A stretch of 64,000 nt of DNA from Candidatus Omnitrophota bacterium (GTDB taxonomy: Bacteria; Omnitrophota; Gorgyraeia; Gygaellales; JAQTUX01): contig JAQTUX010000001.1 of assembly GCA_028707125.1 (NCBI GenBank), positions 269,639 to 333,638 on the forward strand, written 5' to 3'. Below are positions 13,589 through 58,515 of the stretch, in pieces. The position numbers were made by a program, and so were the translations under genes. Below the pieces are notes generated by a model. That model made no database searches. It was not told where the DNA came from and was given only the letters and a program-made list of their open reading frames with translations. How positions within the stretch are numbered: the stretch's first letter is position 1; each line of letters begins with the position of its first letter.

Positions 13589-13593
13589 AAGAT

Positions 13594-15798: not shown

Positions 15799-17114
15799 AG
15801 AGCGGCTCACGCTGGGTGAAGTTCAGGGATAGGCTGAAAAACAGCGGCCTGAAGGATACGCTGAGGACGGCTATGCTGGAATTGAGGCCCGGGCGTTTTT
15901 TCGGGGATTATCTTGATGTGCTGGGGGTGCTGGACGGGCTGCACGCTTATAAAGGCCCGGAGTTCGCCCAGATAGACCTTACCAACGACTGTAATAATAA
16001 TTGTATCGGCTGCTGGTGCAATTCGCCGCTTCTCGGAGACAAAAGGATAAGGTCCGGTGATAAAAGGCGGACACTGTCCCTTAAAAGCGTGCTGAAACTT
16101 CTTGATGAGTTGTCCGCCATGGCCACGCGCCATATTTATTATGCCGGCGGCGGCGAACCGTTCATGCACCCCGATATTATGGAGATACTCAGATACACAA
16201 AGCGGAAAGGGTTTGTCTGTTACGTAAATACCAATTTTACCCTGCTTGACGAAGAGAAGATAAGGAAGATCGTAGATTTGAAGGTTGATCATCTGACCGT
16301 GAGTGTCTGGGCGGCAACGCCTGAGGCCTACTGCTTCACGCACCCCAACAAGGAGGGGGCGGATTTTCTGAGGATAAAGGAGATGCTTTCGCTGCTTAAC
16401 CGGATCAAGCGCGGATACCCGGTAGTCAAACTATACAATGTGATCTTCAATATGAATTACCATGAGCTTTCCGCCATGGTGGATCTTGCCGCGGACACGA
16501 ATTCAGAGGCGGTTGAATTCACGGTCATCGATACCATCCCCGGCAGGACGGATAAGTTGTTGTTGAACCCCCAAGAGCGCAGCGCGTTGTTGGAGGAATG
16601 CAGGAAGATTGAACAGCGCAGCGCGAACGCGCATCTTCGGCCGCGGCCGCAGATAATGAATTTGCGGCAGTTCGCGCGCCGGATCGAAAACGCGGCCTCC
16701 TCAAGCGCCGAATATGATTCAGATGTGATCGGCAGCATGCCTTGCTACGCCGGATGGGCGTTCACGAGGATACTGGCCGACGGCAGCGTGAATTCCTGCC
16801 TGAAATCCCACCGTTTCCCCGTGGGCAATATCCGCCAGGAGAGCTTCAAGAAGATATGGAACGACAGGCGCCAGAGGTATTTCAGAAGGAAGGCCTACCA
16901 TCTGGATAGATCGGACCCCTTTTTCAAGATCATAGGCAACGACCCTGATTCGGCAATGGGCTGCTATAAAAGCTGCGATAATCTCGGACATAACATGGAG
17001 ATGCACGGCAAGATGTCCGCTTTGAGCGCCCGCCAAAGAAGATGGCTTGAACGCGCGGCAGGGATCATGAAGTCAGGGCGCAGATATTACTACGGAATGG
17101 CCGGAGGTAAATAA
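15795..17114 (+). CDS. Radical SAM protein with Cys-rich C-terminal (twitch/SPASM-like) region
   Basis: IDLTNDCNNNCIGCWC (CX3CX2C); GGGEPFMHPD. C-terminal cysteines MPCYAGW...NSCLKSH...GCYKSCDN. Confidence 0.75.
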   Translation: MKSGSRWVKFRDRLKNSGLKDTLRTAMLELRPGRFFGDYLDVLGVLDGLHAYKGPEFAQIDLTNDCNNNCIGCWCNSPLLGDKRIRSGDKRRTLSLKSVLKLLDELSAMATRHIYYAGGGEPFMHPDIMEILRYTKRKGFVCYVNTNFTLLDEEKIRKIVDLKVDHLTVSVWAATPEAYCFTHPNKEGADFLRIKEMLSLLNRIKRGYPVVKLYNVIFNMNYHELSAMVDLAADTNSEAVEFTVIDTIPGRTDKLLLNPQERSALLEECRKIEQRSANAHLRPRPQIMNLRQFARRIENAASSSAEYDSDVIGSMPCYAGWAFTRILADGSVNSCLKSHRFPVGNIRQESFKKIWNDRRQRYFRRKAYHLDRSDPFFKIIGNDPDSAMGCYKSCDNLGHNMEMHGKMSALSARQRRWLERAAGIMKSGRRYYYGMAGGK

Positions 17115-18169
17115 TGGAAAAGCTGAAGCCCGGGTTCTGCTGCCCCGGGATAACCGATGACTGCATGCTGCGCTGCCGGATGTGCGACAAATGGAAGGCG
17201 GACAAGAACACCTACGGCAGGCCGCGCCCCACGCTCGAAGAGTGGAAGAGGGCGGCCACGCAGCTCAGGGAGCTGGTGGACGAGGGATTTGAGATAGATA
17301 TTGGTGGAGGAGAAGCCCTGCTGGTGGACTGGCTCTGGAGTTTTGTGCGGCATTGCGCGGACAGCGGTTTCAGGGCGACCATAGCCAGCAACGGATACCT
17401 GGTTGACGAGGAGATGGCCAGGAAGATCGCCGGCTCCGGGCTTTCCAGCATCATCTTTTCTTTGGACAGCTTGGACCACCGGGTCCATGATTATTGGCGC
17501 GGCAGGCAGGGCGTCTATGACCGGGTGATGCGGGCTATTGAGAATGTGGCGCGCTTTGCCCCTGATGTGCACATAGGCATTTGCAGCATCATAATGGAAA
17601 ATACCCTGGCAGGAATGGTCAAGCTGGCTAAATGGGTAAACAAGGACCCGCGGCTTAAATCGGCCTATTATATGGTGCCGATGCAGCCCAACAATACTTA
17701 CTGGGGCAAGGATGGTTTTGATAAATACTGGTTTAAGTCAAAGGAATACGGATTCTATTGGCCGCAGAATACCGCTAAGGTATTAAAGGTCATAGATGAG
17801 CTTATCCGCAGGCGCCGGGCAGGAGAGTTGATCGGGAATACCGTTGTCCAGCTTGAGGCCTATAAGAATTATCTGGCGCATCCGGAGCGTTTCGTGAAAA
17901 CCGCCCCCTGTAATCTTGACCGCGCCCTGCACATCAGTTCTGTGGGAGATATATTTTTATGTTATAACTGGCCGTCCCTGGGCAACATCAGGAATAAGGA
18001 AGACGACCTGCGCGAGATCTGGTTCTCGGAAAAGGCCGAGGCAGCAAGAAAGAATATCAGGGAATGCAGGGAAAACTGTCATTTCCTGTTGAACTGTTTC
18101 TTTGAAGGGGATTACCCCTTTACCACGGTGGATGAACATAAGCAGGCGTCAATTTTAGAAAAGACATGA
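17114..18169 (+). CDS. Small MoaA/twitch-like radical SAM paralog 1
   Basis: PGFCCPGITDDCMLRCRMCDKW; IGGGEALL; ASNGYLVDEEMARKIAGSGL; FSLDSLDHRVHDYWRGRQG; C-terminal CRENCHFLLNC. Confidence 0.8.
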   Translation: MEKLKPGFCCPGITDDCMLRCRMCDKWKADKNTYGRPRPTLEEWKRAATQLRELVDEGFEIDIGGGEALLVDWLWSFVRHCADSGFRATIASNGYLVDEEMARKIAGSGLSSIIFSLDSLDHRVHDYWRGRQGVYDRVMRAIENVARFAPDVHIGICSIIMENTLAGMVKLAKWVNKDPRLKSAYYMVPMQPNNTYWGKDGFDKYWFKSKEYGFYWPQNTAKVLKVIDELIRRRRAGELIGNTVVQLEAYKNYLAHPERFVKTAPCNLDRALHISSVGDIFLCYNWPSLGNIRNKEDDLREIWFSEKAEAARKNIRECRENCHFLLNCFFEGDYPFTTVDEHKQASILEKT

Positions 18170-19176
18170 TCGTGAAGCCGAAATTCTGCTGCGTGGCGGC
18201 TACGGATTACTGTATGCTGCGCTGTAAAATGTGCAATAAATGGCAGGAGAGGTCCCCCCGGCCCGACGAGGTCCCTTCCCTGGATGAGTGGAAGAACTTT
18301 ATCGCCGCTTTCAGGGAGCTGGTGGACGAGGGTTTTGAGATGGATTTCGGCGGCGGCGAGGCGTTGTCGCTGCCGGGCATCCTGGAACTTGTAAAATTCG
18401 CCAAGGGCAGGGGCTTCCGTACCACCCTTGCCTCCAATGGCTATCTTATAGATAAAGAGATGTCCAGAAGGATAGCCGACTCCGGCCTTGATGCGGTCAG
18501 CCTGTCTCTGGACAGCCCTTATCCTGAAGTCCACGATAAGATGCGCGGCGTAGAAGGTGTTTATCAGCGCGTAATGGCCGCGCTGGATAATCTCTCTTTA
18601 TATTCCCCTTCAACCAGAAAGGGCCTTTGCTGCATAATTATGAATGAAAATATGGACAGTTTGATACGGCTGGCTGATATGGCTGATAAAGACCCCCGCG
18701 TTGACTGGCTTTATTTTATGTCGGTGGTCCAGCCCAATTACAGCGGCCCGCTGGACAGCGCCTGGCGCGATGAATACAGCTATCTTTGGCCGCGGGATAC
18801 CAGGCGGCTGCAAGACATAATAGATGAGTTGATACGCAGGAAGGCTGACGGCTCAAAGGTGAGCAACCGGCCCGAGCACCTGCGCGCCTACAAGGCCTAT
18901 TTCGCCGACCCAAAGACGTTTGTGAACAAGGCGAAGTGTATCGTGGGCGGGGCGGCGATAAGTGTGAATACCTACGGCTTCATTCAGCTTTGTTTTTTCA
19001 TGGATTTTATCGGCAACATCAGGAAGGATGATATCCGCAAACTCTGGTATTCTCAGGGCGCGGAGTCGGTAAGAGGCAAGGTAGGCGCCTGCAAGGCCAA
19101 TTGCCATCTGCTTCTTAATTGCTGTTATATAGAAGACGATCCCGAGTTATATTCCGTAAATAATGAAAGCCGTTAG
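18166..19176 (+). CDS. Small MoaA/twitch-like radical SAM paralog 2
   Basis: PKFCCVAATDYCMLRCKMCNKW; GGGEALSLP; ASNGYLIDKEMSRRIADSGL; C-terminal CKANCHLLLNC. Confidence 0.8.
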   Translation: MIVKPKFCCVAATDYCMLRCKMCNKWQERSPRPDEVPSLDEWKNFIAAFRELVDEGFEMDFGGGEALSLPGILELVKFAKGRGFRTTLASNGYLIDKEMSRRIADSGLDAVSLSLDSPYPEVHDKMRGVEGVYQRVMAALDNLSLYSPSTRKGLCCIIMNENMDSLIRLADMADKDPRVDWLYFMSVVQPNYSGPLDSAWRDEYSYLWPRDTRRLQDIIDELIRRKADGSKVSNRPEHLRAYKAYFADPKTFVNKAKCIVGGAAISVNTYGFIQLCFFMDFIGNIRKDDIRKLWYSQGAESVRGKVGACKANCHLLLNCCYIEDDPELYSVNNESR

Positions 19177-20449
19177 ATTCTGGCTTGTGTCGCTATTTGC
19201 CGCCGCCGTATTGCTGGAGGCGGTATTAAGGGTTTCCGGGTCCGCGTATGCCGGGGCTCATTGGTTGAGGCAGGGCCTGTCAAGAGGCAGCCAGGGCAGG
19301 CCTTTTACCGTACTTTGCCTTGGTGATTCTTTTACCTTCGGCGTAGGCGCCGCCGCCAAAGACAGCTATCCGGCGCAATTGCAGCGGATGCTGCAGGGCA
19401 ACGGAGAGAAAGGATTCCTGATAATTAACGGCGGACGGCTGGCGAATACTTCTTCTCTGCTCCTGGAAAATCTGCGCTCCGACCTGGATACTTACAGGCC
19501 GGACTTGCTGGTGATCATGGTCGGCTGTAATAATTATTGGAATCTCCGCGGCAGCAGCTATTTCCATCTCAAGGGCGAAGGCGCGGGATTCCGGCAGAAA
19601 CTGGACAGCGTAATGAGCAACCTGCGTTTCTACCAGGCATGTAAGATAGGTTATTTGAATCTGAAGTCAAGATTGAATAACCGGCGCAGGCAGCCGGATA
19701 TTGCCGGCGTCCCCGATATGAAGGCGCGGCGGATAGACCCTGACGCTGACCGGCTGGTGGTGGAAGCGCAGAAGCTATACGAAACAGGCGAGTACGCGCT
19801 TTCAAGAGAAAAGTTGGACGAGGCGCTGGCGAGGGACGAATTCAGCCACCGCGCCCATTTCTTGTCGGCCATGCTGCTGAATATAGAAGGCAATGATACG
19901 GCGGCAAGGGATGAGCTCTGGCGGTCTCTTCAGGCGGCCAGGGAAACCGGCGAATGGGACGGCGGTTTCTTTTGCAATATTATTAATATTTGTTTACGGA
20001 TTGAGAAAGACATCCCCGCGCAGCGAAGGCAGTTGTCAAAGATGAGGGAGTTCGCGGCGCTGCACGCGCCGCCCGATAAGAAACAGGATATCCTTTCGCT
20101 CTTGGACGCGAAGGCAGGGCTGTTGGATGATAATAGCGATATGTATGAGGTCGCGAGGTTTGATATCGGACGGGTCGCCGGCCTGGCAAGGCAGCGTGGC
20201 TGCGCGGTCATACTCCAGACATACCCGGCAAAAAGCGATCTGAATTCAATGTTAAGACGGGTGAGCAAAGAATACGGCCTTGTTCTGGCAGATAATGAAT
20301 TATTCTTTGAAGAGAGAGGCAGAGAAGGCCCGTTAGGGGATCTTTTCGTGGCTGACGGCCACTGTTCAGCTGCCGGGTATAATTTGATCGCCGCAAACGT
20401 CTACGCGGCATTAGCCGATAATGGCTATATCAAAAATGCGAAAAGATAA
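19163..20449 (+). CDS. Membrane-anchored SGNH/GDSL-family hydrolase with inserted TPR-like helical domain (paralog 1)
   Basis: N-terminal TM helix. Block I LCLGDSFTFGVGAA; block III LLVIMVGCNNYWN; block V FVADGHCSAAGY. Central helical region with TPR-like periodicity. Confidence 0.7.
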   Translation: MKAVRFWLVSLFAAAVLLEAVLRVSGSAYAGAHWLRQGLSRGSQGRPFTVLCLGDSFTFGVGAAAKDSYPAQLQRMLQGNGEKGFLIINGGRLANTSSLLLENLRSDLDTYRPDLLVIMVGCNNYWNLRGSSYFHLKGEGAGFRQKLDSVMSNLRFYQACKIGYLNLKSRLNNRRRQPDIAGVPDMKARRIDPDADRLVVEAQKLYETGEYALSREKLDEALARDEFSHRAHFLSAMLLNIEGNDTAARDELWRSLQAARETGEWDGGFFCNIINICLRIEKDIPAQRRQLSKMREFAALHAPPDKKQDILSLLDAKAGLLDDNSDMYEVARFDIGRVAGLARQRGCAVILQTYPAKSDLNSMLRRVSKEYGLVLADNELFFEERGREGPLGDLFVADGHCSAAGYNLIAANVYAALADNGYIKNAKR

Positions 20450-21443
20450 TACCGCCTGCGTTCCACGTTATTGCTGCTGGGTGATAAATTACCGCTGTAT
20501 GCTCAGGTGCAAGATGTGCCATATCTGGAATACCGATTATGATCCGGCGCAGGAAACGACCATGGAGCAGAAGAAGCGGCTGGTGAGCTCGTTGAAGGGC
20601 GTGGTGGAGCCGGGTTTTGAATTTCATCTTTCAGGGGGCGAGCCCTTGATCAGCGAAGGCATACTGGAGCTGGTGGATTTTATCGCCGATCAGGGCTATA
20701 AGACAAACCTGGTTACCAACGCCTTCCTCATTGACGAGAGAATGGCGCGGGATATTGCCGCGTCTTCTCTGGGGACCCTGACCATTTCCCTGGACGGGAT
20801 AAAAGCCGAGACGCACGATTTTATCAGGGGCGTAAACGGCAGTTACGAGAGGATAATGAAGGCGATCGGATATGTTGATAAATTCAGGAAAGGCGATGCG
20901 CCGCGCATTTCTATCCTGACCACAATTATGGAGCGCAATATTGATGAGCTTTTGCGATTAGCGGATTGGGTGCAGAGCGACAGGCGGCTGGAGATGATCA
21001 GCTTTCAGGCCATAACCCAGCCGTTCTGCGAGGAGGCGGATCAGGCCTGGTTTACAAGGGAGAAAAACCGCGCGCTCTGGCCGCAGGACGCGGAAAAGAC
21101 AGCGGCCGTTATGGATAAATTGGAGCAGCTGAAGCGGCAGGGCCGCAAGATCGGCAACCACCCGGACCACTTCCGCCATTTCGGGGAATATTTCAGATCG
21201 CCCGATACGTTCTTGAAGAAGATAAAATGCAACCTCGGCGATTATGAGTTCCACATTGACCCATACGGCAAGGTCTTCTTCTGTTGCCTGGTTGAACCCA
21301 TCGGCAATATCAAGTCAGACGATACGGCGAATATCTGGTTTACTCCCAATACCGCCAGGATCAGGCAGGAGGTTTATAACTGCCGTCGTAATTGCCATAT
21401 CATGATCAACTGTTTCTATGAAGAAGAGAAATCCGCTGCTTGA
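20421..21443 (+). CDS. Small MoaA/twitch-like radical SAM paralog 3
   Basis: PRYCCWVINYRCMLRCKMCHIW; LSGGEPLI; VTNAFLIDERMARDIAASSL; ISLDGIKAETHDFIRGVNG; CRRNCHIMINC. Confidence 0.8.
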   Translation: MAISKMRKDNTACVPRYCCWVINYRCMLRCKMCHIWNTDYDPAQETTMEQKKRLVSSLKGVVEPGFEFHLSGGEPLISEGILELVDFIADQGYKTNLVTNAFLIDERMARDIAASSLGTLTISLDGIKAETHDFIRGVNGSYERIMKAIGYVDKFRKGDAPRISILTTIMERNIDELLRLADWVQSDRRLEMISFQAITQPFCEEADQAWFTREKNRALWPQDAEKTAAVMDKLEQLKRQGRKIGNHPDHFRHFGEYFRSPDTFLKKIKCNLGDYEFHIDPYGKVFFCCLVEPIGNIKSDDTANIWFTPNTARIRQEVYNCRRNCHIMINCFYEEEKSAA

Positions 21444-22488
21444 TTTATTATTTCCGGGAAAGATGAGGCCTGCTCCGGCATTCTGCCTTCTGGTCGTCTC
21501 CAAGGCATGCACGTTCAGATGCAAGATGTGCAATATGTGGAAGAGCGCTGGGCGCAAGATAGACAGGAAGGAGCTTACGCTTGATGAGATAAAGGGCTTT
21601 GTGGATGACCTGAGGAATGTCACCACCGAGCCGATATTTATCCACCTCATCGGAGGCGAGGCGTTGTTGAGGAAAGACCTGATGGAGATCATCGCCTACA
21701 TCAGGAAAAGGGGATTCAACGCCTCTATCACGACAAACGGATATTATATAGACGAGGAGATGGCCGGGAGGATCGTGGCCTCGGGCCTTACCGGCATATT
21801 CCTATCCCTGGACGGTTATAAGGAACAGACCCATGATTATCTCCGCGGAGTTGAAGGCAGCTACAAAAAGGTGATGGATGCCATAGAGCTGCTGGACCGG
21901 TATCGCGGGACCGATAAGTCCAACCGGCTGAGTATAGGGATCACCACGACGTTGATGAATAGAAATCTGGATGAGGCGCTTGATCTGGAGCGATGGGCAA
22001 ACGCCAACGACAAGATAAACGATTTTTTCATCAACGCCTGCCTGCAGCCGTTTGACTGCGACGGCTATGAGCGCGACTGGTATAAGAACAGCAAGAACAG
22101 CGATGTCTGGCCGCAGGATATAGCTAATGCCTGCGATGTCCTGGAAGAGTTGGCGCTGCTTAAGGAAAAAGGGCATAAGATCTGCAACCCCCCTGAACAG
22201 CTGCGCCTGGTAAAGGAGTACTTCCGCAATCCCTACAGGTTCATTCACGACAGCCGGCTGAAATGCCCGAGGGGAGACCTGGCGCCGGAGATAAACGCCT
22301 ACGGAGACATAAATATGTGTTTTTATATGGAGCCGCTCGCCAACATCAGGGACAGGAAATTTTCCGAGGTCTGGTCTTCCCGGATGATGGATAAGGCCAG
22401 AGAAGAGATCAACAGCTGCAAAAAGGACTGCGATATCGTAGTCAACTGTTTCTACAAAATAGAGAATATAGCCGATAGCCGTGCTTAA
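21418..22488 (+). CDS. Small MoaA/twitch-like radical SAM paralog 4
   Basis: PAFCLLVVSKACTFRCKMCNMW; IGGEALL; TTNGYYIDEEMAGRIVASGL; LSLDGYKEQTHDYLRGVEG; CKKDCDIVVNC. Confidence 0.8.
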   Translation: MKKRNPLLDLLFPGKMRPAPAFCLLVVSKACTFRCKMCNMWKSAGRKIDRKELTLDEIKGFVDDLRNVTTEPIFIHLIGGEALLRKDLMEIIAYIRKRGFNASITTNGYYIDEEMAGRIVASGLTGIFLSLDGYKEQTHDYLRGVEGSYKKVMDAIELLDRYRGTDKSNRLSIGITTTLMNRNLDEALDLERWANANDKINDFFINACLQPFDCDGYERDWYKNSKNSDVWPQDIANACDVLEELALLKEKGHKICNPPEQLRLVKEYFRNPYRFIHDSRLKCPRGDLAPEINAYGDINMCFYMEPLANIRDRKFSEVWSSRMMDKAREEINSCKKDCDIVVNCFYKIENIADSRA

Positions 22489-23479
22489 TAAGAAAGAGAA
22501 AATAGCCGCGCCAAGGACCTGCCTTCTGACGGTCACCAACCAATGCTGCCTGCGCTGCCGTATGTGCCGGCTTTGGAAGCTGGATACCATAAAAGACGAA
22601 GTAAACATTGAGGATTGCCGAAAATTCGTTGATGCGCTAGGCGGCTTCGGCCCGGGCCCCATGGAGGTGCACCTTATCGGCGGAGAGGCGCTGACCAAAA
22701 ATGGCATATTTGATCTTATCCGGCATATCAGCGCCAAAGGGTGGCGCACTGTAATGACCTCTTCAGGATATACCATAGACGAGCCGACAGCGCGGGCGCT
22801 GGTTGAGGCGGGCTTAAGCATGTTGAACTTGTCGCTGGAGAGTATGGATCCTTCGGTCCACGACCACTTAAGGGGGCAGGGCGGTTGTTTCAGCCGCCTT
22901 ATGGAGGCGATCCGGCATCTGGGCAGGCATAAGAATGATTCTTTTAAGCTGGGCATTAATTCCGTTATTTCCGCGGCCAATCTGGAAGATATCGCTGAGT
23001 TAGCAGAGTGGGTGCAGGGTAACGACATCCTGGATTCCATTTATTTTATGGCGGTTATGCGGCCTTTCGGCTCAGGGGCGGATTGGGATTGGTTTAAGCA
23101 GGAGGAATACCGCCATTTGTGGCCTTCAGACCCGGCAGGCGCAGGTCGCGTTCTGGACCGGCTTATCCGTTTAAAGGAAGGCGGCTCCTCTAAAATAGAA
23201 AATCCCGCCGGACAGCTGGAGTCGTTTAAGTCATATTTCCGCGACCCGTCCCATTTTATAAGATCCAACCGCTGCAATGTTTCGGAACAGGCGGTTAACG
23301 TCAACGCAGTAGGCGATATGTATATCTGTTTCTTCATGGAAAAACTCGGCAATATCAGGACCGACAACGTCGTTGAACTCTGGTATTCGGAAAAGGCCGA
23401 TGAGATACGCAGAAAGATGCGCGCCTGCAGGAGCAACTGCGAGCTGGTAGTGAACTGCTATTATGAAAATGAGCGTTAA
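22481..23479 (+). CDS. Small MoaA/twitch-like radical SAM paralog 5
   Basis: PRTCLLTVTNQCCLRCRMCRLW; IGGEALT; LSLESMDPSVHDHLRGQGG; CRSNCELVVNC. Confidence 0.8.
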   Translation: MLNKKEKIAAPRTCLLTVTNQCCLRCRMCRLWKLDTIKDEVNIEDCRKFVDALGGFGPGPMEVHLIGGEALTKNGIFDLIRHISAKGWRTVMTSSGYTIDEPTARALVEAGLSMLNLSLESMDPSVHDHLRGQGGCFSRLMEAIRHLGRHKNDSFKLGINSVISAANLEDIAELAEWVQGNDILDSIYFMAVMRPFGSGADWDWFKQEEYRHLWPSDPAGAGRVLDRLIRLKEGGSSKIENPAGQLESFKSYFRDPSHFIRSNRCNVSEQAVNVNAVGDMYICFFMEKLGNIRTDNVVELWYSEKADEIRRKMRACRSNCELVVNCYYENER

Positions 23480-32054: not shown

Positions 32055-33357
32055 AAAGGCGCTTTCTTTTATATTTATCACGCTCTCTACCATCTTTTTA
32101 TTAGAGGCAGGCCTTAGATCCGGCGGATACCTTGTTCTGAAGTTTAACCCGCCCTCGCAAAGCGGCCGCCTGAAACAAGGGGGAGAAACAGTCATTCTTT
32201 GTTTGGGGGATTCTTTTACCTTCGGAGTAGGCGCCGCCTATCAGGATAGCTATCCGCGGCAGCTGGAAGGCATGCTTAAGGAGAGGTTCCCCCGGAAGTC
32301 CATCAAGGTTTATAATCTGGGTATCCCCGGGAGTAATTCCTCGCAGCTTGAGAGCGGGCTTCAACGGGATATCGATAAATACCATCCGGACCTGGTAATA
32401 GTCATGTCCGGACGCAATGATATCTGGAATATGGCCGGAGCCGGCAGGCCGGTTTTTTTACTGAGCGGATCGCGTTTATATAAATTGATAAAGGCCGCGC
32501 AGGCAAATATAGCGGCCAAGATGAGAAAGATTGAGGAAAATGAACGCGCCTTAGCGCCGAGAAAGGCGCCGCCGGAGGCAAGCCGGTTGATTACGCAGGG
32601 CCATGACTTGAAGGAGCAAGGAAGGTATGATCTGGCGAAGGAGTGTTTTCTTGAGGCGCTGCGTATCGACCCGGGCAATCCCGACGCCAACCGGCAACTG
32701 GGCACTATTTATAGAGAGGGGGCGGAATACGAGCTGGCTGAGAAGTGTTTGACTGAAGCGGTGAGGCAGGGTTATGGCGGGGATGGGAATATCTATGTGG
32801 AATTGGGTATGGTCCACAGGATACAGAACAGGCCCGGGTTGGTCCGGGAGGAGTTAAGGCGGGCATTGGTGGACCCGCGCGCGGCAGCGCTTGCCTTTAT
32901 TGAATTTCAGCAGACCTGTGCCGACAGCAGCGAGTTTTATAAAGAGATGGAGGCCTTCAGCGCGGGGCTTAAGGACAGGGGGAGTCGCAGGATGATCAAG
33001 GCCATGATAGCATTGCACAGGGACAAAGAGGCGATAGCGGCAATAATGCGCGATAACTTCCTGAAGATATATAAGGCCTGCAGGGATAACGGTGTCGGGC
33101 TGATATTGCAGACATATCCGGAAACGGAGAACGTAGCGGAAGGTGTAAGGCATATAGCCGATAGATACGATATCCCCACGGTGGACAACCATCTGGTATT
33201 TGAGAAAGAATTGAATGGCCGCGATAGAAGGGAGTTTTTTGTAAGCGATGACCATTGCAATGCCGAGGGGTACCGGCTTATCGCGGAGGGCGTATACGAG
33301 GCCATGATCAGGGAAGGGATGATTGATGATACCGTCGCCATCGCCGCAAAAAATTAA
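32047..33357 (+). CDS. Membrane-anchored SGNH/GDSL-family hydrolase with TPR-like insert (paralog 2)
   Basis: N-terminal TM; ILCLGDSFTFGVGAAYQDSYP; LVIVMSGRNDIWN; FVSDDHCNAEGY; central TPR-like region (ECFLEALRIDPGNPDANRQLGTIYREGAEYELAEKCLTEAV). Confidence 0.7.
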   Translation: MFKKALSFIFITLSTIFLLEAGLRSGGYLVLKFNPPSQSGRLKQGGETVILCLGDSFTFGVGAAYQDSYPRQLEGMLKERFPRKSIKVYNLGIPGSNSSQLESGLQRDIDKYHPDLVIVMSGRNDIWNMAGAGRPVFLLSGSRLYKLIKAAQANIAAKMRKIEENERALAPRKAPPEASRLITQGHDLKEQGRYDLAKECFLEALRIDPGNPDANRQLGTIYREGAEYELAEKCLTEAVRQGYGGDGNIYVELGMVHRIQNRPGLVREELRRALVDPRAAALAFIEFQQTCADSSEFYKEMEAFSAGLKDRGSRRMIKAMIALHRDKEAIAAIMRDNFLKIYKACRDNGVGLILQTYPETENVAEGVRHIADRYDIPTVDNHLVFEKELNGRDRREFFVSDDHCNAEGYRLIAEGVYEAMIREGMIDDTVAIAAKN

Positions 33358-34357
33358 CGAGCCAAAGAGTTGCGTCATACTGCTCACTCTTGGATGCGTT
33401 CTAAGATGCAGGATGTGCCATCTCTGGAAGAACGACGAGGCAGGGATAAAAAAGCCCGGCCTGCAGGACTGGAAGGATTTTATTTCTTCCATAAACAGGC
33501 CGCGGGATCCCGAATTTACGGTCATATTCGGCGGAGGAGAGCCGATGCTGTTTCCCGATACCCTGATAGAGTTGATCCGCTTCTGCCGCGCAAGAGGATT
33601 CAGGACCTCTCTGGCGACAAGCGGATATTTCATAGATGAAGCAATGGCTAAACGCCTGGCAGATTCAGGGTTAAACTATATAGCCCTTACTTTATACAGT
33701 TTAAATGAAAAGACCCATAATTTTTTGCGCGGTATGCCCGACAGCTATGACAAGCTCATACGGGCGATCGGCTATCTTGCCGGACAGCGCGCCTCTCTCG
33801 AAACAGCCATAGACACCGTGATCATGGCGCCTAATCTGGGAGAGGTCTTAGAATTGGCGGATTGGGTAAAGGGCGACGGAAGGATATCTTCCGTTTTCTT
33901 CCAGTCGGTTGTGCAGCCGTTCCATACGCCGGCGCTGGAAGAGTGGTATAAGTCAGGGGAATACGGATTCTTATGGCCAAAGGACGCCGCTCAGGTGGAT
34001 TCCGTCATTGACGGATTGATAGAAAGGAAGGAGCGCCTGGGGGAGGGAAGGGGCAGGATCAATAATCCCGTTTCGCAGCTTAAACTTTTCAAGGCCTATT
34101 TCAGGGACCCGCGCAAGTTTATAAAACGTTACTCCTGCAACGTTATTAATGACAGCGCCTTTACCGTGTCTCCCGACGGAGGAGTGAATCTTTGCCCGTA
34201 TATGAAGCCCATCGGCAATATACGCGGCGGCTCCCTGCGCGATATCTGGCATTCGCAGGAGGCGCTGGCCAGGCGGGATGATATAGCGCGGTGTAAAAAG
34301 AACTGCCACCACATAATCAATTGCTGGTATGAGGAAGAAAAGGCGGTATGTGCTTAG
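33323..34357 (+). CDS. Small MoaA/twitch-like radical SAM paralog 11
   Basis: PKSCVILLTLGCVLRCRMCHLW; GGGEPML; ATSGYFIDEAMAKRLADSGL; CKKNCHHIINC. Confidence 0.8.
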   Translation: MMIPSPSPQKINEPKSCVILLTLGCVLRCRMCHLWKNDEAGIKKPGLQDWKDFISSINRPRDPEFTVIFGGGEPMLFPDTLIELIRFCRARGFRTSLATSGYFIDEAMAKRLADSGLNYIALTLYSLNEKTHNFLRGMPDSYDKLIRAIGYLAGQRASLETAIDTVIMAPNLGEVLELADWVKGDGRISSVFFQSVVQPFHTPALEEWYKSGEYGFLWPKDAAQVDSVIDGLIERKERLGEGRGRINNPVSQLKLFKAYFRDPRKFIKRYSCNVINDSAFTVSPDGGVNLCPYMKPIGNIRGGSLRDIWHSQEALARRDDIARCKKNCHHIINCWYEEEKAVCA

Positions 34358-36402
34358 ATAGTGAAAACGGCCATATAATATCCGGCAACCGGTATCTGGA
34401 CAGAAAGAAATACAGCCGGGCGCTGGAAGAATTCAATAAGGCGCTGGATGCTGACCCGCGCAACGAATACGCCTATCAGGGGCTGGGGCATCTATATCTG
34501 CAGCAGGGAAAATATGAGCAGGCATTAGAGGCATTCCGGAAGGGGCTGCGGATCAACAGCCGGAATCAGTATATACATCAGGGTTTAGGGTATATATACC
34601 TGGAACAGGGCTCATATGATGCTGCAGAGCGGGAGTTTGAGGTGACCCTGCGGCTGGGCGGAGATAATATGTTCGCCCGTAGGATGCTGGGATATATCTA
34701 TAAGAGAAAGGGAAAGGACGAGGCGGCGGCGTCGGAATTCATAAAGGCGACGGAATTATATCTGGGAAGAGAGGAAAATAATAAAAGGCCGGCTTCGGGA
34801 GACGGCCGCCGGGATTGGAAGGTCAAGCTGTTAAGGATGCCCGGCTTTCCCGACGAAAATGATATCGGCGGCAGGCAGCTGAATTACTGCCTGCTACCGC
34901 CTCTGGCGCTGGGCTGCCTTACCGGTTTTCTGAGGCAGAACGGGTTTGATATCGATCAGGATGACCTGAACATAAAGATCCATTACGATAATAAATATTG
35001 CGATGACGCCGGAGATAAGGTAGATATCTCCGTTTTTTACGATGAGGGCAGGATACTGAGGTGGCTGCGGGAAGGAGGAGACGGGTATTTAGATTCGGTT
35101 ATGGAGGCAGTCGGGCGCAAGACAGGGTTGAGCGGATACCCGGTCGTCTTATTGTCGCTGCCCGCGTTTTTCAATAATTCCGGCTGTCTTATGTTCACCC
35201 TGGCGCTGGCAAGATTCCTCAAGAATAGACACAATCCCGTCCTGGTTTTAGGGGGAGCCAATCAATCGGTTGAATTGTTGAGCAAGTATGACAGGCGTGA
35301 CATAGATTTTGTGATCTACGGTGACGGAGAGGTGGCGCTGCTTGAACTACTTGGGGCCATAAGACAGGATGCCGACCCCGGGGAGTGCCTGTATTCCTGC
35401 GTTAAAGAAGAGGGCAGGTTTATGGCAACAGAGGTCCATCCTCCGCTTAAGCCGGATTTTTCCGGACTGCCCATGGACAAATACAGGCATGAGGGGACGC
35501 TGCTTCTTTTGTTTAAGTTTATCAAGGGATGCGCCCATGAATGCGTTTTCTGCCCTGAATCCACAAACAGACTGGTTTATGTTTTGAAGCCGGAGAAGGC
35601 AGCCGGTTATTTAAAAGAGCTTCAGGAAAAATACAACCCCACAGGATTTTTCTTCTTAAGCGATACCATAAATATCTCCAGGGGTTTCCTTAATGAGTTT
35701 TGTGATGAGATAATCGGCAGCGGAACGGACATACTCTGGACCGACAGCGCGCGCGCGGACAACCTGGACAGGGATACGCTTTTTAAGATGCGCCGCGCCG
35801 GATGCATACGCCTGGTCTTCGGCATGGAGACGGCCAGCCCGGGATTGTTGAGGTATGTGGACAAGCGCATCAGTTTAAGGCGGCTGGAAGATGTATTGAG
35901 ATGGGCTGATGAGGCCGGGATATGGACGGGGGTGGAGATAATCTGCGGCCTGCCGCACGAGAAAGAAAGAGATGTTGACGAGACGGTATCCTTTTTGAAC
36001 AGGAACAAGGAGTTTATAAACAGCGCGTATTTTAATCAATTCGGCCTCAGGGACGGCAGCGTGCTTATGCGCAGCCCGGAAAGGTTCGGGATTGAAAATA
36101 TAAAAGAGATATGCCAATACGCGGACGGGGAATTTACCTATTTTCATAAATACGGATACGACGAGACAGGCGGCCTTCAATGGCAGGAAAAGAAGAGGCA
36201 GATCATTGCCGCGCATAAAAAGCTCATTAATAATACCTGCTGGCAGAGCGCCTTTCCCATCTATGAGTTTGAGCATGTTTTGTTTTCGCTTTATTCCAGG
36301 TTCGCTGATAAAAAGGCGGTTTCCGGCATATTCAATGAGATGCTGAAAGAGAGGAATTATCAGAGGCAACAATCTACAGACCATGCCAAAGCGCGGTATT
36401 AA
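34348..36402 (+). CDS. TPR-repeat / B12-binding-domain / radical SAM fusion protein (paralog B)
   Basis: N-terminal TPRs (YAYQGLGHLYLQQGKYEQALEAFRKGLRINSRNQYIHQGLGYIYLEQGSYDAAEREF). FIKGCAHECVFCPEST. Shares long collinear similarity with 28478-30640 (e.g. GIWTGVEIICGLPHEKERDVDETVSFLNRNKE). Confidence 0.75.
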   Translation: MCLDSENGHIISGNRYLDRKKYSRALEEFNKALDADPRNEYAYQGLGHLYLQQGKYEQALEAFRKGLRINSRNQYIHQGLGYIYLEQGSYDAAEREFEVTLRLGGDNMFARRMLGYIYKRKGKDEAAASEFIKATELYLGREENNKRPASGDGRRDWKVKLLRMPGFPDENDIGGRQLNYCLLPPLALGCLTGFLRQNGFDIDQDDLNIKIHYDNKYCDDAGDKVDISVFYDEGRILRWLREGGDGYLDSVMEAVGRKTGLSGYPVVLLSLPAFFNNSGCLMFTLALARFLKNRHNPVLVLGGANQSVELLSKYDRRDIDFVIYGDGEVALLELLGAIRQDADPGECLYSCVKEEGRFMATEVHPPLKPDFSGLPMDKYRHEGTLLLLFKFIKGCAHECVFCPESTNRLVYVLKPEKAAGYLKELQEKYNPTGFFFLSDTINISRGFLNEFCDEIIGSGTDILWTDSARADNLDRDTLFKMRRAGCIRLVFGMETASPGLLRYVDKRISLRRLEDVLRWADEAGIWTGVEIICGLPHEKERDVDETVSFLNRNKEFINSAYFNQFGLRDGSVLMRSPERFGIENIKEICQYADGEFTYFHKYGYDETGGLQWQEKKRQIIAAHKKLINNTCWQSAFPIYEFEHVLFSLYSRFADKKAVSGIFNEMLKERNYQRQQSTDHAKARY

Positions 36403-37993
36403 AGTCATAAGATTGCCCGGTTTTTTCAAGAAGCGGCAATTCTCTTCAGGGCCGAATTGCTGCCTGATACCTCCTTTGGGACTGGGGCTTATCAGCGCGC
36501 ACCTTCGCTCCAAAGATATGCCGGTAGAGCAGGCGGATCTCAATATTGAGATCCATCACAATAATTACTATTCCGATTCAGCCGCGGACAAGATTGATAC
36601 CGAGGTATTTTTTGACCTGCCGCGCGTAGAGAGATACGCGCTTGGCGGCAGCGATCAATATATAGATTCTATTATGGACAGGGCAGCCGGTAAGGCCGGG
36701 GTGGGCCAGGGGCAGTTTATGCTTCTTTCTCTGCCGGACAATATCGAGAATGAAACAAACCTTTCTTTCGCGCTGGCCTTTACGCGTTTTATCAAAGACC
36801 GATACGGCACCATAAACATATTGGGCGGGCAGGGGCCGTGGCTGGGCCATATGCGTTCCCGGTATGGCTGCCGAAATATAGATCATATCCTGCGCGGCGA
36901 CGGCGAATACCTTCTTGACCGGATTTTTGACGCGCCGGAAGCGGGCCCCGCGTTCTCCGGCGGGCCGTATCTGTCGGTTGAAGACGGCGGCAAGGTGATA
37001 ACTTCAAATAAGATATGCAGGCCGATCAAACCCGATTTCTCCGGCCTGCCCATGGACAAATACAGGTCCAGGCAGGAGGTGCTGGAGCATCCGCGGGAGC
37101 TTGGGGGTTTAATGGATGAATTCCAGAAAAATGGGGCGTTGCTTTTGCCGTACAGGTTTATCAGGGGATGCCCCTTTGAGTGCATCTTTTGTGTTTCCTC
37201 AACCCAGAGTTTAAGCCACGCGCTTTCTCCGGCGGAGATCGCCGGGCACCTGGAGTCCATGCAGGAACAATACCGGCCGGACGGGTTCTTCTTTTTGAAC
37301 GATACCATAAATATATCCAGGAAGTTCATAAATGAATTGTGCGATGAGATATTAAACCGCGGGCTTAAGGTCTTGTGGAGCGACTGCGCCAGGGCGGACA
37401 ACCTGGACAGGGACACGCTTTTTAAGATGCGCCGCGCCGGATGCATACGCCTGATCTTCGGGATGGAGACGGCCAGCCCCCGTTTGCTGAAGTACATAAA
37501 TAAACGGGTGGACCTGGCGCAGCTGGAGAACGTCCTGCGCTGGTCTGATGAGGCCGGCATCTGGACCGGGGTTGAGGTGATCTGCGGTTTCCCCCACGAG
37601 CGGGAGGAAGACATACGGGCCACGATCTCGTTCCTGAATAAAAATGAGGAATATATCAACCGCGTGTACCTGAATCATTTTGACCTGAGGCAGGGCAGCA
37701 TGCTTTACGATTCTCCCCGGAAATACGGCCTGAAGCGGGTCATTGAAGTCAATCAATGCACGCAGAGGGATTTCAGCAGTTATGTTCAGTTTGGCTTTGA
37801 CGAAGACGGGGGGCTGGCCTGGGAAGAAAAAGAGAGGCAGATGGAGCGTTCCCTGGGAATGGTCCGGGACAGCTGCGCGCGGGGCTCGAGGTTTTTTACA
37901 GACGAGCATCTTTTATTTTTTCTTTATTCCAGGTTCAGCGATAAGGAGAGGATAAGATCCATTTATCTCAAGATCCTCAAACAGGAGGGGTGA
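36383..37993 (+). CDS. B12-binding radical SAM protein (paralog of the C-terminal two-thirds of 34348/28478, no TPR)
   Basis: FIRGCPFECIFCVSSTQS; RAGCIRLIFGMETASPRLLKYINKRVDLAQLENVLRWSDEAGIWTGVEVICGFPHEREED is almost identical in pattern to the upstream gene. Confidence 0.8.
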   Translation: MPKRGIKVIRLPGFFKKRQFSSGPNCCLIPPLGLGLISAHLRSKDMPVEQADLNIEIHHNNYYSDSAADKIDTEVFFDLPRVERYALGGSDQYIDSIMDRAAGKAGVGQGQFMLLSLPDNIENETNLSFALAFTRFIKDRYGTINILGGQGPWLGHMRSRYGCRNIDHILRGDGEYLLDRIFDAPEAGPAFSGGPYLSVEDGGKVITSNKICRPIKPDFSGLPMDKYRSRQEVLEHPRELGGLMDEFQKNGALLLPYRFIRGCPFECIFCVSSTQSLSHALSPAEIAGHLESMQEQYRPDGFFFLNDTINISRKFINELCDEILNRGLKVLWSDCARADNLDRDTLFKMRRAGCIRLIFGMETASPRLLKYINKRVDLAQLENVLRWSDEAGIWTGVEVICGFPHEREEDIRATISFLNKNEEYINRVYLNHFDLRQGSMLYDSPRKYGLKRVIEVNQCTQRDFSSYVQFGFDEDGGLAWEEKERQMERSLGMVRDSCARGSRFFTDEHLLFFLYSRFSDKERIRSIYLKILKQEG

Positions 37994-38991
37994 TGGCCGC
38001 TGGCAATCCCCGTTTTTGCGATATCGTGGTCTCCAACCGGTGCCTGCTCAGGTGCAGGATGTGCAAGTCCTGGCAGTGCGGGCCTCAATCAAACGAGATT
38101 ACTCTTTCGGAGGCAAAGCGGTTCGTAGAGGGGCTTTCCGAATTTGTCAAGGAGCCCCTGGAAATAAACGTGATGGGCGGAGAGCCGTTATGGAAGGATT
38201 GGTGCCTGGACCTCTGCGCCTTTATTTCCAAAAAGGGCTTCAGGTCCATAATTTCCACAAATGCCTACCTTATAGACGAAGATATGGCAAGGCGCATAGC
38301 GGATTCGGGGTTGAACGTGCTGGCGATCTCGCTGGAAAGCCTGAATCCGGCGACGCATAATTTCTTAAGGGGCAGGGAAGATGTATTCTCCAGGGTGATG
38401 AAGGGCATAGAGAACATCCGCAGGTTCTGCGGCCCGGACCTGACAGTCACCATCCTCACCATAATAATGGAGAGGAATTTAAGCGAGATAATCGAGCTGA
38501 CGGAATGGGTGAACAGCGACAGGTTGTTCCAGAACATCTCTTTTCTGGCACTGCTGGAAACAGGCCTGGTAGAGGACAGGAATGGATGGTTCAGAAGCCC
38601 GGTGTACAAGGAGCTTTGGCCGCAGGACACGGAGAAGCTTTACCGCCTCATAGATGAATTAAAGGAGAAAAGAACGCGGGGTTACAAGATCTGGAATCCG
38701 CTTTCGCAGCTGGACGCGTTCAAAGATTATTATACCGAGCCGGAGCGGTTTATGAGAGAGACGCAATACCGCGTTCATGATTATATAATAGATTTAGATG
38801 AGAACGGCATTATCTACCTTAGCGGAGAGGCCCTGGGCAACATCAGGGATGATAATGTGCGGGGACTCTGGTTTTCAGATAAGGCGCAGGCGATCAGGGA
38901 GAAGATCGATGCGCGCGGCCCGGGGAAGAGGTGCTGCGTTATTAACTTTGTCTGCGCCTTCCCGCAGGACAGTGAATATGCCAAACGATAA
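37990..38991 (+). CDS. Small MoaA/twitch-like radical SAM paralog 12 (divergent C-terminus)
   Basis: PRFCDIVVSNRCLLRCRMCKSW; MGGEPLW; ISLESLNPATHNFLRGRED. C-terminus is GKRCCVINFVCAFPQD instead of CX3CX5C. Confidence 0.75.
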   Translation: MMAAGNPRFCDIVVSNRCLLRCRMCKSWQCGPQSNEITLSEAKRFVEGLSEFVKEPLEINVMGGEPLWKDWCLDLCAFISKKGFRSIISTNAYLIDEDMARRIADSGLNVLAISLESLNPATHNFLRGREDVFSRVMKGIENIRRFCGPDLTVTILTIIMERNLSEIIELTEWVNSDRLFQNISFLALLETGLVEDRNGWFRSPVYKELWPQDTEKLYRLIDELKEKRTRGYKIWNPLSQLDAFKDYYTEPERFMRETQYRVHDYIIDLDENGIIYLSGEALGNIRDDNVRGLWFSDKAQAIREKIDARGPGKRCCVINFVCAFPQDSEYAKR

Positions 38992-39961
38992 ATCCCATAT
39001 GATTGGAAGGCCGAAATTCTGCGTTATAGAGGTATCGCATAGATGCATGTTCCGCTGCAAGATGTGCAACTACGGAGTATCCGCGCCCGAGCCGGAGGTC
39101 AGCGTCGGAGAACTGATAGGATACGTATCGTCATTCAAGGATTTTGTGAACACGCCTTTTGAGATAAACATCTCCGGCGGAGAGCCGCTTTTAAAAGAGG
39201 GCGCGCTGGAATTGCTGGGGTTCATCAGCGGCCTGGGATTTAACAGCTCCATGGCCACCAACGCCTATTTGATCAACAGGGAAAACGCCAGGCGCCTGGC
39301 GGATTCAGGGGTGGGGGTTGTCCCCATATCCTTGGACAGTTTAGATGGGCGCGTCCACGACTACCTTAGAGGAAAGGATGGGGCGCATAAGAACGCCATG
39401 GATGCCTTAAATTATTTTATGGAATACAGGGGCAGATTGAGGGGGGTGGTTATCCAGTCGATCATCATGGAGCCGACGCTGGATGGGCTGGTGGAGCTTG
39501 CCGGATGGGCCGATCAAAGGGACATCTCGGTATCATTTATGGCGGTAATGCGGCCGAATATGGTCCCTGTTGATTTAAGATGGCATGAAAGAGAGGAGTT
39601 CAGCTTTCTCTGGCCGAAGGATACCGCTAAAGCGCATTCCGTCATTGATAAGCTGATAGAAATGAAACAGTCGGGCTGCCGCGTAGATACGCCTGTCGGC
39701 CAGTTGAGGCGTTTTAAGTCGTATTTCGCCGATCCGCTTCAGTTCGTAAGAAAGGCCAGCTGCGGCCTGGGCGAGGATATCGTCCATATAAATAACAAGG
39801 GCGACATTTACCTTTGCTGCGAGATGGAACCGATCGGTAACGTAAAAGACGCCGATATACGCTATACCTGGTTTTCGCCGAAAGCCGCGCGGGTCAGGCG
39901 GGAGATAAAAAAATGCCGGAGAAATTGCGCGGAGATGATAAACTGCTATCGGGAGGAGTGA
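38978..39961 (+). CDS. Small MoaA/twitch-like radical SAM paralog 13
   Basis: PKFCVIEVSHRCMFRCKMCNYG (conserved Trp replaced); SGGEPLL; ISLDSLDGRVHDYLRGKDG; CRRNCAEMINC. Start set at the Met at 38978 overlapping the upstream stop (ORF track begins at 38798). Confidence 0.75.
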   Translation: MPNDKSHMIGRPKFCVIEVSHRCMFRCKMCNYGVSAPEPEVSVGELIGYVSSFKDFVNTPFEINISGGEPLLKEGALELLGFISGLGFNSSMATNAYLINRENARRLADSGVGVVPISLDSLDGRVHDYLRGKDGAHKNAMDALNYFMEYRGRLRGVVIQSIIMEPTLDGLVELAGWADQRDISVSFMAVMRPNMVPVDLRWHEREEFSFLWPKDTAKAHSVIDKLIEMKQSGCRVDTPVGQLRRFKSYFADPLQFVRKASCGLGEDIVHINNKGDIYLCCEMEPIGNVKDADIRYTWFSPKAARVRREIKKCRRNCAEMINCYREE

Positions 39962-42825: not shown

Positions 42826-42983
42826 CAGGGACAGCGGCCGCTATAGAATAAAATATACGTAGCAGAAAGGAAGGATGCGTTTTATACTGACGGTATTATT
42901 AACGATCGCGGCTTTGGGCATGGATTGTTTCCTGTGGCTGCTTAAGAGGATCAAAAAAATATGCGTTTTCCCCGGGGGGTAAG

Positions 42984-44177: not shown

Positions 44178-44179
44178 CA

Positions 44180-46561: not shown

Positions 46562-46567
46562 GTCGAT

Positions 46568-49492: not shown

Positions 49493-49494
49493 CG

Positions 49495-53067: not shown

Positions 53068-53085
53068 GGGCCCGACAGGACTAAC

Positions 53086-54105: not shown

Positions 54106-54153
54106 AAGTCCTTATGCTTCAGTTATCCGTAACCGGCAGCGTTGTTTGATTAA

Positions 54154-58497: not shown

Positions 58498-58515
58498 AAC
58501 AAAGGGAACATCCGG

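Follow-up and report, generated by a model that had tools for sequence, protein, structure and literature searches.

A stretch of 64,000 nucleotides (nt) from the genome of an uncultured bacterium of the Omnitrophota (GenBank contig JAQTUX010000001.1, positions 269,639 to 333,638; hereafter the window, in whose coordinates all positions are given) carries, in the region 17114–39961 of the + strand, 13 intact open reading frames (ORFs) of 327–356 amino acids (aa) that together form a single radical SAM (rSAM) family. The enzymes are a new subfamily of the known twitch-type rSAM class, and a conserved array of more than 10 members, tied into a Wzm/Wzt glycan pathway and with fusions to glycosyltransferases, is without characterized precedent. 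The reading that we favor, to which we give an even chance, is that the 13 paralogs tailor an exported glycan by radical chemistry, each at a specific position. The same layout is kept in uncultured, ultra-small and probably host-dependent anaerobes, for which the cell surface is likely to be central to the lifestyle.

Family Boundary and Signature

All 13 proteins have a CxxxCxxC motif within their first 40 residues (the thirteenth gene being read from 38978) and match Radical_SAM (PF04055) at 50–83 bits, above the gathering cutoff of 29.5 bits; Pfam SPASM, with a cutoff of 21.5 bits, is exceeded in 11 of them. A sequence-only reading of the window had described 13 small rSAM paralogs with a collinear signature, and both the ORFs and the collinearity hold in a MAFFT alignment of the 13 (A1): C9, C17, C21, C24, G65-G66-E67, H125, W206, W216-P217, C322, and C328 are invariant, and W27, C266, C283, and C318 are nearly so. 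The family signature is C-x3-C-x-M-C-x2-W ... LWP-x-D ... C-x11-G-x4-C ... C-x3-C-x5-C. The C-terminal Cys triad (C-x3-C-x5-C) had been recognized correctly, but the two Cys of the hairpin motif C-x11-G-x4-C (C266 and C283 in A1 numbering) had been overlooked, so that the C-terminal domain has five conserved Cys rather than three (C-x11-G-x4-C ... C-x3-C-x5-C). Two spacings had been given for an additional Cys upstream of the N-terminal triad, of which C-x7-C is right and C-x6-C is not. Pairwise identity, put at 35–50% by eye, ranges from 30.8 to 44.5% (median 36.8%) over the 78 BLAST pairs.

A profile built on the 13 scores its own members at 447–481 bits and the other rSAM/SPASM genes of the window at no more than 73 bits, a gulf that sets off a discrete family with a boundary far beyond chance. 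A word-indexed search of 5.8 billion proteins returned about 84 close relatives (E < 1e-49), with the next match at E ~1e-28; the named ones are almost all from Omnitrophota/Omnitrophica and bear generic protein names only. An exhaustive profile search of 1.84 billion representatives at 50% identity yielded at least 150 at ≥295 bits, and 143 full-length domains from these representatives make up the wider family set. The CxxxCxxC motif is present in 143 of the 143 and the W two residues past the triad in 138; the residue preceding the third Cys is Met in 94 and His in 20, the hairpin motif C-x11-G-x4-C occurs in 133, and C-x3-C-x4-6-C occurs in 128.

Database versions of family members are often only ~302–307 aa long (P0001, P0005, P0027, P0033–P0041); the 303-aa call of P0001, for example, starts at Met28, just past the CxxxCxxC loop. 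Such N-terminal truncation is probably due to gene callers avoiding overlap with the upstream gene, and motif searches would miss these entries because they lack the catalytic motif.

Fold and Class Membership

The AlphaFold2 model of the sixth paralog (330 aa, 23463–24455), computed from 57 sequences, has a mean pLDDT of 95.2 and a pTM of 0.92; strand β1 begins at residue 10, and a hairpin (E266–269/E274–276) lies between C260 and C278. BlsE is the top match of this model in Foldseek (E 8.5e-18, TM 0.74/0.74), followed by SkfB (E 4.0e-15), and it is also the top match in phmmer (2.6e-15), followed by GDGT-MAS (8.2e-10). A profile of the C-terminal domain searched against PDB has a sole match, the twitch domain of BtrN (E 0.0024), in which the hairpin Cys are aligned and a GNI...IW...R motif is common to both. 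Because the C-terminal profile matches BtrN with aligned Cys and the hairpin is flanked by Cys, the family is assigned to the twitch-type rSAM enzymes; its nearest characterized relatives act on sugars or cyclitols. Each paralog combines a CxxxCxMC-x2-W cluster loop with a partial TIM barrel and, at the C terminus, a twitch domain of BtrN type, and the twitch domain has Cys enough that it could hold one auxiliary [4Fe-4S] cluster. Of the seven-Cys motif of two-cluster SPASM domains (CX9-15GX4C ... CX2CX5CX3C ... C), the family has only the first half, followed by C-x3-C-x5-C.

None of the NCBIfam models reaches its cutoff (265–725 bits) for any of the 13 proteins. The best names, at 70–106 bits, are GeoRSP (TIGR04303, 101 bits against a cutoff of 400), AhbD (TIGR04545, 105 against 500) and NirJ2 (TIGR04055, 106 against 500). 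Membership in the BlsE family (TIGR04466) was rejected at 37–69 bits, among the paralogs for which it is listed, against a cutoff of 400. The MoaA/twitch topology that had been suggested is supported in its twitch part, by the model and the BtrN match, while MoaA membership was rejected (TIGR02666, 45–84 bits against a cutoff of 284).

Orthology and Age of the Paralogs

When one genome for each GTDB species was scanned with the ortholog alignment of one paralog, related loci came up in 15 species-level metagenome-assembled genomes (MAGs; L003–L017), most of them labeled Omnitrophota and a few labeled otherwise (e.g., "uncultured Planctomycetia" and "uncultured bacterium"). These loci hold 5 to 14 family members each, a number limited by contig ends, and gene order is colinear throughout L003–L017; L009, for instance, has ordered matches at 4852, 5876, 6897, 7984, 9014, 9998, 11041, 12019, 13003, 15446, 18130, and 19171. 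Identity between orthologs is mostly 51–82%, against 31–45% between paralogs, and single-linkage clustering at 50% identity places one window member in each orthogroup, save that the first two are merged. Since separate orthologs stand in a fixed order, the duplications are older than the split of the lineages and the copies have persisted independently since, in agreement with the earlier view of old, diversified paralogs.

Whether each paralog also has a distinct substrate or regiospecificity, as was proposed along with that view, finds indirect support: 19 alignment positions are conserved within at least seven of eight orthogroups and have at least four different residues between orthogroups, the pattern to be expected if specificity differs among them. 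These positions sit on β1, β2, β3, β5, β6, the post-β6 loop and the twitch hairpin, and beside the C-terminal Cys, and they may line the substrate pocket.

The individual paralogs, given here with their A1 profile scores and with the identity of their orthologs in the related loci, run as follows. Paralog 1 (351 aa, 17114–18169) matches PF04055 at 69.7 bits and SPASM at 31.8 bits and scores 456 bits (orthologs 53–71%), and paralog 2 (336 aa, 18166–19176) matches PF04055 at 78.3 bits and scores 461 bits (orthologs 68–80%). Paralogs 3, 4, 5, 7, and 11 match both PF04055 and SPASM: paralog 3 (340 aa, 20421–21443) scores 481 bits and has orthologs at 57–69%; paralog 4 (356 aa, 21418–22488) scores 451 bits, has orthologs at 69–82% in 12 of 14 loci and is fused to the paralog-5 type in P0128; paralog 5 (332 aa, 22481–23479) scores 469 bits with orthologs at 58–67%; paralog 7 (356 aa, 24452–25522) scores 465 bits and is fused to the paralog-8 type in L003, L010, P0127, and P0130; and paralog 11 (344 aa, 33323–34357) scores 456 bits, has orthologs at 55–68% and stands first among the three domains fused in P0126. 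The orthogroup of paralog 8 (347 aa, 25488–26531; 447 bits) is the most narrowly conserved, with orthologs only in L003 (54%) and L010 (51%), each the C-terminal half of a fusion. Paralog 9 (328 aa, 26512–27498) matches SPASM at 35.3 bits and scores 461 bits (orthologs 50–66%), and paralog 10 (331 aa, 27499–28494) scores 479 bits (orthologs 54–59%). The last two, paralogs 12 (333 aa, 37990–38991) and 13 (327 aa, 38978–39961), are the deviant members treated below. The longest ORF of paralog 13 begins at 38798, but the family domain and the orthologs favor the ATG at 38978, which is most likely the start of the gene.

The Fourth Cysteine and the Two Deviant Members

The additional Cys upstream of the triad had been taken to define the subfamily and perhaps to ligate a cluster, and neither claim is supported. 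All 13 window paralogs have it and most array members do as well, with I, V, S, or L in its place in some, and across the 143 family domains the position is Cys in 67 and V, I, or L in 63. It does not mark the family as a whole, and such a lack of conservation is what the earlier reading had itself named as refuting the point. In the model of the sixth paralog it is the second residue of strand β1 (E10–16), which would make the site a buried-strand position at the far end of β1 from the cluster loop. Its conservation in 67 of 143 domains and its placement in β1 make it an unlikely ligand of a cluster or of any metal.

Paralog 12 has the rSAM triad and GGEP and has no SPASM match. It had been described as lacking the C-terminal Cys triad: the first triad Cys is indeed gone, as are both hairpin Cys, but the last two triad Cys are kept. 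The first triad Cys is missing in all six orthologs (L009, L011, L012, L013, L014, and L017) and the hairpin pair in most of them. Because the loss recurs in orthologs, it is old and maintained and is not decay, and the "ongoing" non-functionalization proposed earlier for this member is not supported. Its type also serves as the N-terminal partner of the paralog-13 type in fused proteins (L009, L012, P0129, and P0126). The replacement of Trp after the triad by Gly in paralog 13, whose SPASM match is 27.5 bits, is real and is confined to the present genome, its orthologs retaining W.

Exporter, Glycan Genes, and Fusions

The coding ORFs of the window all lie on the + strand, and the cumulative GC skew climbs without reversal. 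Between 6933 and 42825, each gene overlaps the next or is at most 4 nt away from it. Genes for rSAM enzymes account for 26 of the ~46 genes of the window, and 21 of them lie between the exporter and the first glycosyltransferase (GT), over ~36 kb. The exporter (6933–10421) consists of an ABC-2 permease of Wzm type and a 903-aa TagH/Wzt-like ATPase (7710–10421), matching PF01061 and PF00005; the best NCBIfam matches of the ATPase are TagH (171 bits) and galactan Wzt (127 bits), both below cutoff. Its 650-aa C-terminal extension (residues ~250–903) is made of three ~200-aa repeats ("VGRWP...W" and others) and is 42–45% identical in L074 and L075. Pfam matched nothing in this extension, Wzt_C (PF14524) included, and BLAST showed no likeness to the Wzt_C found in L076; the extension may be a new polymer-recognition module that reads the modified polymer. 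A pair of Wzm and a large Wzt stands immediately upstream of the rSAM block in both L074 and L075, and L075 has in addition, just upstream of its block, a GT4, a Glycos_transf_4 phosphoglycosyl transferase, a carbamoyltransferase, and an amine oxidase.

The rSAM block opens (10415–17114) with a 1057-aa rSAM/SPASM protein, a 760-aa HpnJ-like B12-binding rSAM (13516–15798), and a 439-aa rSAM/SPASM protein, and this order (large rSAM/SPASM, B12-rSAM, ~410-aa rSAM/SPASM) is kept in L001/L009, L074, and L075. HpnJ, a hopanoid-associated rSAM, is the best match of the 760-aa protein (272 bits against a cutoff of 577), whose 280-aa C-terminal extension is unassigned. The array of small paralogs is broken up by genes for SGNH-TPR proteins, for two TPR-fused class-B-like rSAMs, and for another two rSAMs of B12 type. 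Four paralogous SGNH/GDSL-TPR genes (19163–20449, 32047–33357, 41614–42825, and 59398–60798), each encoding an N-terminal hydrophobic anchor, are interleaved with rSAM genes, and an equivalent gene lies inside the L075 array. A TPR-fused class-B-like rSAM (720 aa) and a B12-binding rSAM (496 aa) at 28478–32054 have orthologs in L004–L007, L009, L012, and L015; a second TPR-rSAM (684 aa) and a 536-aa class-B-like rSAM occupy 34348–37993. The last gene of the block encodes a 556-aa rSAM/SPASM protein (39966–41636) with orthologs of 46–67% identity in seven loci.

Glycan-assembly genes follow at 42984–50121, encoding a GT4, a Wzy_C/O-antigen-ligase-like protein with TPRs, two GT2s, a second GT4, and a Bac_transf phosphoglycosyl transferase. 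In L012, L013, and L017 a GT4 ortholog is found next to the rSAM block, and the in-array B12-rSAMs, the closing rSAM/SPASM protein, and the next GT4 are conserved in several related loci. The link to glycan genes that had been proposed for the array is supported by the window's own Wzm/Wzt-like pair and its GT2, GT4, Bac_transf, Wzy_C, and PMT_2 proteins, by the conservation of the exporter in L074 and L075, and by fusions of family domains to GT2.

These fusions occur in relatives. Among eight long relatives tested, six (P0140, P0145, P0150, P0190, P0195, and P0206; 1130–1490 aa) consist of a GT2 domain (85–107 bits), a coiled coil, an rSAM/SPASM domain, and a C-terminal family domain, the last matching the window profile over its full length at 294 bits. 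The P0140 locus (the sister locus L076/L077), in an Omnitrophota MAG, also encodes a phosphoglycosyl transferase, Wzm, a Wzt with Wzt_C, PMT_2, four more GTs, and an rSAM/SPASM-GT4 fusion; judged by its genes, it is a classic example of a polysaccharide locus of the ABC-transporter-dependent kind. The GT2 fusions furnish the strongest evidence linking the family with glycan synthesis. Their coiled coil is reminiscent of the molecular rulers that terminate chains in O-antigen pathways.

A profile search also found proteins of two or three family domains, and the fused types are always window neighbors in window order (by gene start, 21418+22481, 24452+25488, 37990+38978, and 33323+37990+38978). 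They include P0126 (1034 aa) and P0127–P0134, and they suggest that neighboring paralogs act together.

Proposed Function and Alternatives

From the family boundary, fold class, orthology, synteny, glycan context, and fusions described above, we infer a substrate, a chemistry, a cluster content, and a mode of complex formation. Each cytoplasmic paralog would use a 5′-deoxyadenosyl radical to abstract hydrogen at one particular carbon of a sugar, either in a lipid-linked glycan or in its sugar precursors, and would perform one positional step (dehydration/deoxygenation, oxidation, epimerization, or decarboxylation), with the twitch cluster serving in electron transfer or substrate anchoring. 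The interleaved B12-type rSAMs would add C-methyl groups, and neighboring paralogs would probably be physical partners, including the pair of which one member is without the auxiliary cluster. The completed polymer would be exported by the Wzm/Wzt-like ABC transporter, modified after export by the membrane-anchored SGNH-TPR proteins, and ligated to an acceptor. That acceptor might be a 2016-aa fiber-like protein encoded just upstream of the exporter (129–6179), which is rich in Gly, Thr, Ala, and Ser, contains no Cys, and ends in a Peptidase_S74 intramolecular-chaperone domain; with that domain and its repeats ("GNVGIGT.P...LDV.G" and "ELNFVDGVTSAIQTQL" modules), it resembles a tail fiber or surface fiber. 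No ortholog of it was found in the related loci, whose stretches mostly end short of that upstream region. If glycan tailoring is the correct reading, the array would be a source of new oxygen-free sugar modifications, would offer 13 natural variants of one scaffold for the study of how rSAM regiospecificity evolves, and would define a family that annotation pipelines call just "radical SAM protein," often in N-terminally truncated form.

A bolder form of the glycan reading, which we regard as possible though rather doubtful, is a radical tailoring line in which at least a dozen twitch-rSAMs, physically coupled to one another, to the B12 methylases and, in sister loci, to the polymerizing GT, each rewrite a different C–H position of a lipid-linked glycan before Wzm/Wzt export. 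It would imply heavily deoxygenated, C-methylated, or cross-linked sugars, a chemistry new to characterized polysaccharides, and would amount to an anaerobic radical counterpart of O-antigen diversification.

Several observations count against glycan tailoring. SPASM/twitch enzymes as a class are more often peptide modifiers; the best sub-cutoff matches of the B12-rSAMs are partly RiPP (ribosomally synthesized and post-translationally modified peptide) methyltransferases and HpnJ; and the likeness to BlsE is at the level of fold only (20–22% identity, and 37–69 bits against 400 for TIGR04466). A conserved 47-aa basic, aromatic-rich ORF stands at the array head in six or seven relatives. No nucleotidyltransferase, 4,6-dehydratase, or aminotransferase gene, the classical genes of nucleotide-sugar synthesis, occurs in the window. 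The AlphaFold2 model of a natural two-domain fusion (P0129; six sequences) has a pTM of 0.47, a disordered linker of ~50 residues, and no confident inter-domain packing, so that the case for complex formation is carried by the fusions.

The 47-aa ORF bears most directly on an alternative that we consider unlikely, namely that the paralogs are peptide or protein maturases introducing a cross-link, an epimerization, or another radical change into a ribosomal substrate, be it the 47-aa protein of the relatives or a surface protein such as the 2016-aa fiber, with the GTs decorating and the ABC transporter exporting the modified product. The 47-aa protein (MAxTxWQKF..K.GG.FYA.YRG.KY..WR..C....IDW.QF.R) is very basic and has 10 aromatic residues, and its conserved gene immediately precedes the first array member in relatives. 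It is found at 3628–3771 in L001, 15792–15935 in L074, and 15415–15558 in L075, and also in L008, L011, and L013; in L008, L009, L011, L013, and L017/L074 it is 53–68% identical and located between the ~410-aa rSAM/SPASM gene and the first small rSAM gene, and the ORF of L075 is of equal length at the matching position. Maturation of peptides would also accord with sub-cutoff NCBIfam matches to StsB, WgkB, SkfB, PqqE, and MftC, with the matches of the B12-rSAMs to ApyD and RiPP C-methyltransferase models below cutoff, and with the TPR domains, the PMT_2 protein, and the Thr/Ser-rich fiber protein close by. However, the 47-aa gene is missing at the covered junction in the window, L006, L007, L012, and L015, about half of the covering loci, and it usually travels with an extra first paralog, often lacking the fourth Cys; both are missing from the window. 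A gene so patchy and so tied to one extra paralog looks like an accessory and not like the substrate of the array. The intergenic gaps of the window hold no precursor-like ORF, tblastn with the 47-aa protein was empty, and no RRE/PqqD domain, fused or discrete, was matched in any protein of the window, the small rSAMs opening directly with β1 at residue 10. The fiber protein, as noted, is free of Cys and was not recovered from related loci (whose stretches mostly stop short upstream). The closest structural and sequence neighbor is, by a clear margin, the sugar enzyme BlsE, and family members are fused to GT2 domains.

Tailoring of lipids or of the lipid part of glycolipids, modeled on Tes/GDGT-MAS, GrsA/B, and the hopanoid rSAMs, we likewise hold to be improbable. 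Under this proposal acyl or isoprenoid chains would be cyclized, cross-linked, or methylated and the ABC-2 transporter would export a glycolipid, and it can draw on the presence of GDGT-MAS among the sequence and fold matches, weak matches to the Tes model, the likeness of the 760-aa B12-rSAM to HpnJ (272 bits) together with a match to the ladderane-cluster B12-rSAM model, the four GDSL-"lipase"-like proteins, and the resemblance of ABC-2 nucleotide-binding domains also to NodI and DrrA. These matches are all far below family cutoffs, however, and genes for making fatty acids, polyketides, isoprenoids, or glycerolipids are absent from the 64 kb. The part of a hopanoid on which HpnJ acts is the sugar moiety, which weighs against the lipid proposal. 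The SGNH proteins, with their membrane anchors and TPRs, appear more like polysaccharide-modifying SGNH proteins, and the GT2 fusions and the Wzt_C-bearing exporter of the sister locus point to polysaccharide.

That the array is a gene-amplification relic of redundant or decaying duplicates, as two members with deviant motifs and the rarity of the 25488 orthogroup might suggest, is essentially excluded by the orthology pattern, since most members have an ortholog at 51–82% in conserved order while paralogs differ by ~60%, every one of the 13 ORFs is intact and has its catalytic motifs, the Cys losses of paralog 12 are mostly shared by its orthologs, and orthogroup-specific positions exist.

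Relation to Known Systems

The nearest known enzyme, BlsE (PDB 7VOB), acts on cytosylglucuronic acid in the blasticidin S pathway and resembles the family in its size (327 aa), in its rSAM core with a C-terminal twitch-like domain, and in the absence of an N-terminal peptide-recognition domain. It shares with the family the CxxxCxMC loop, a motif that its discoverers called unusual (PMC3715490), and an SLD...THD motif. BlsE is, however, a single-copy enzyme of an actinomycete nucleoside-antibiotic pathway, whereas the family occurs as 5 to at least 14 syntenic paralogs in Omnitrophota polysaccharide loci, and the W after the triad, LWP-x-D, FK-x-YF-x-P, PIGNI, and C-x3-C-x5-C of the family are undocumented for BlsE. 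BtrN is alike in its hairpin Cys, which align near its residues 169 and 188, in a shared GNI...I..IW....F..R motif, and in the alignment of the later family Cys with its CKNC; BtrN, DesII, and AprD4 differ in being single-copy enzymes that act on small aminoglycoside or deoxysugar intermediates, and the family differs from them in its five C-terminal Cys. With the SPASM maturases (anSME, SkfB, SuiB, CteB, and PqqE) the family has in common above-cutoff Pfam SPASM matches in 11 of the 13 paralogs, but it is without their CX2CX5CX3C two-cluster motif and RRE, and no precursor is adjacent in the window. GeoRSP, AhbD, and NirJ supply the best NCBIfam names for the family, yet at scores far below their cutoffs.

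The exporter of the window, beside GT2 and GT4 enzymes, a phosphoglycosyl transferase, and an O-antigen-ligase-like protein, recalls Wzm/Wzt O-polysaccharide systems, from which its Wzt differs by the three-repeat 650-aa extension in place of a Pfam Wzt_C. ABC-dependent O-polysaccharide systems of the E. coli O9a WbdD type use multidomain, coiled-coil chain-modifying enzymes, and the sister locus, with its Wzt_C-bearing Wzt and a GT2-coiled-coil-rSAM-rSAM protein, is alike in this respect. Known Wzm/Wzt systems tailor their polymers by kinases, methyltransferases, or acetyltransferases and not by rSAM arrays. Carbohydrate rSAM chemistry is known from single enzymes of antibiotic pathways, and no characterized polysaccharide pathway is known to have an rSAM array. 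Full-text literature on Omnitrophota rSAM enzymes, on rSAM/SPASM proteins in polysaccharide synthesis, and on rSAM with Wzt gave no account of the family or of such arrays. A 2026 survey of Omnitrophota genomes mentions radical SAM only as a Pfam domain that co-occurs with sugar-metabolism domains in giant proteins.

Other Features of the Window

Upstream of position 43000, the only sizeable non-coding stretches are a 278-nt gap after 6655 and a 158-nt gap at 42826–42983. Scanned over its full length against Rfam, the window gave no match to a riboswitch or any other RNA family, and Pfam searches to E 1 drew a blank in the first 700 residues of the 1057-aa rSAM, in the Wzt extension, and in the other unmatched regions. 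Between the fiber gene and the exporter lies a gene for a 132-aa four-helix-bundle protein of the 23S_rRNA_IVP family (6257–6655). Downstream of the glycan-assembly genes, 50135–62890 encodes a DUF362 protein, a 307-aa rSAM, a methyltransferase, a HemN/HemW-like 525-aa rSAM, a PMT_2 GT-C, a Peptidase_U32-family protein, and two more rSAMs, and a B12-rSAM runs off the end of the window; all are candidates for further anaerobic tailoring. The 1057-aa rSAM/SPASM protein is 100% identical to MDD4909320.1, and identical fragments are present in runs SRR22315506-8.

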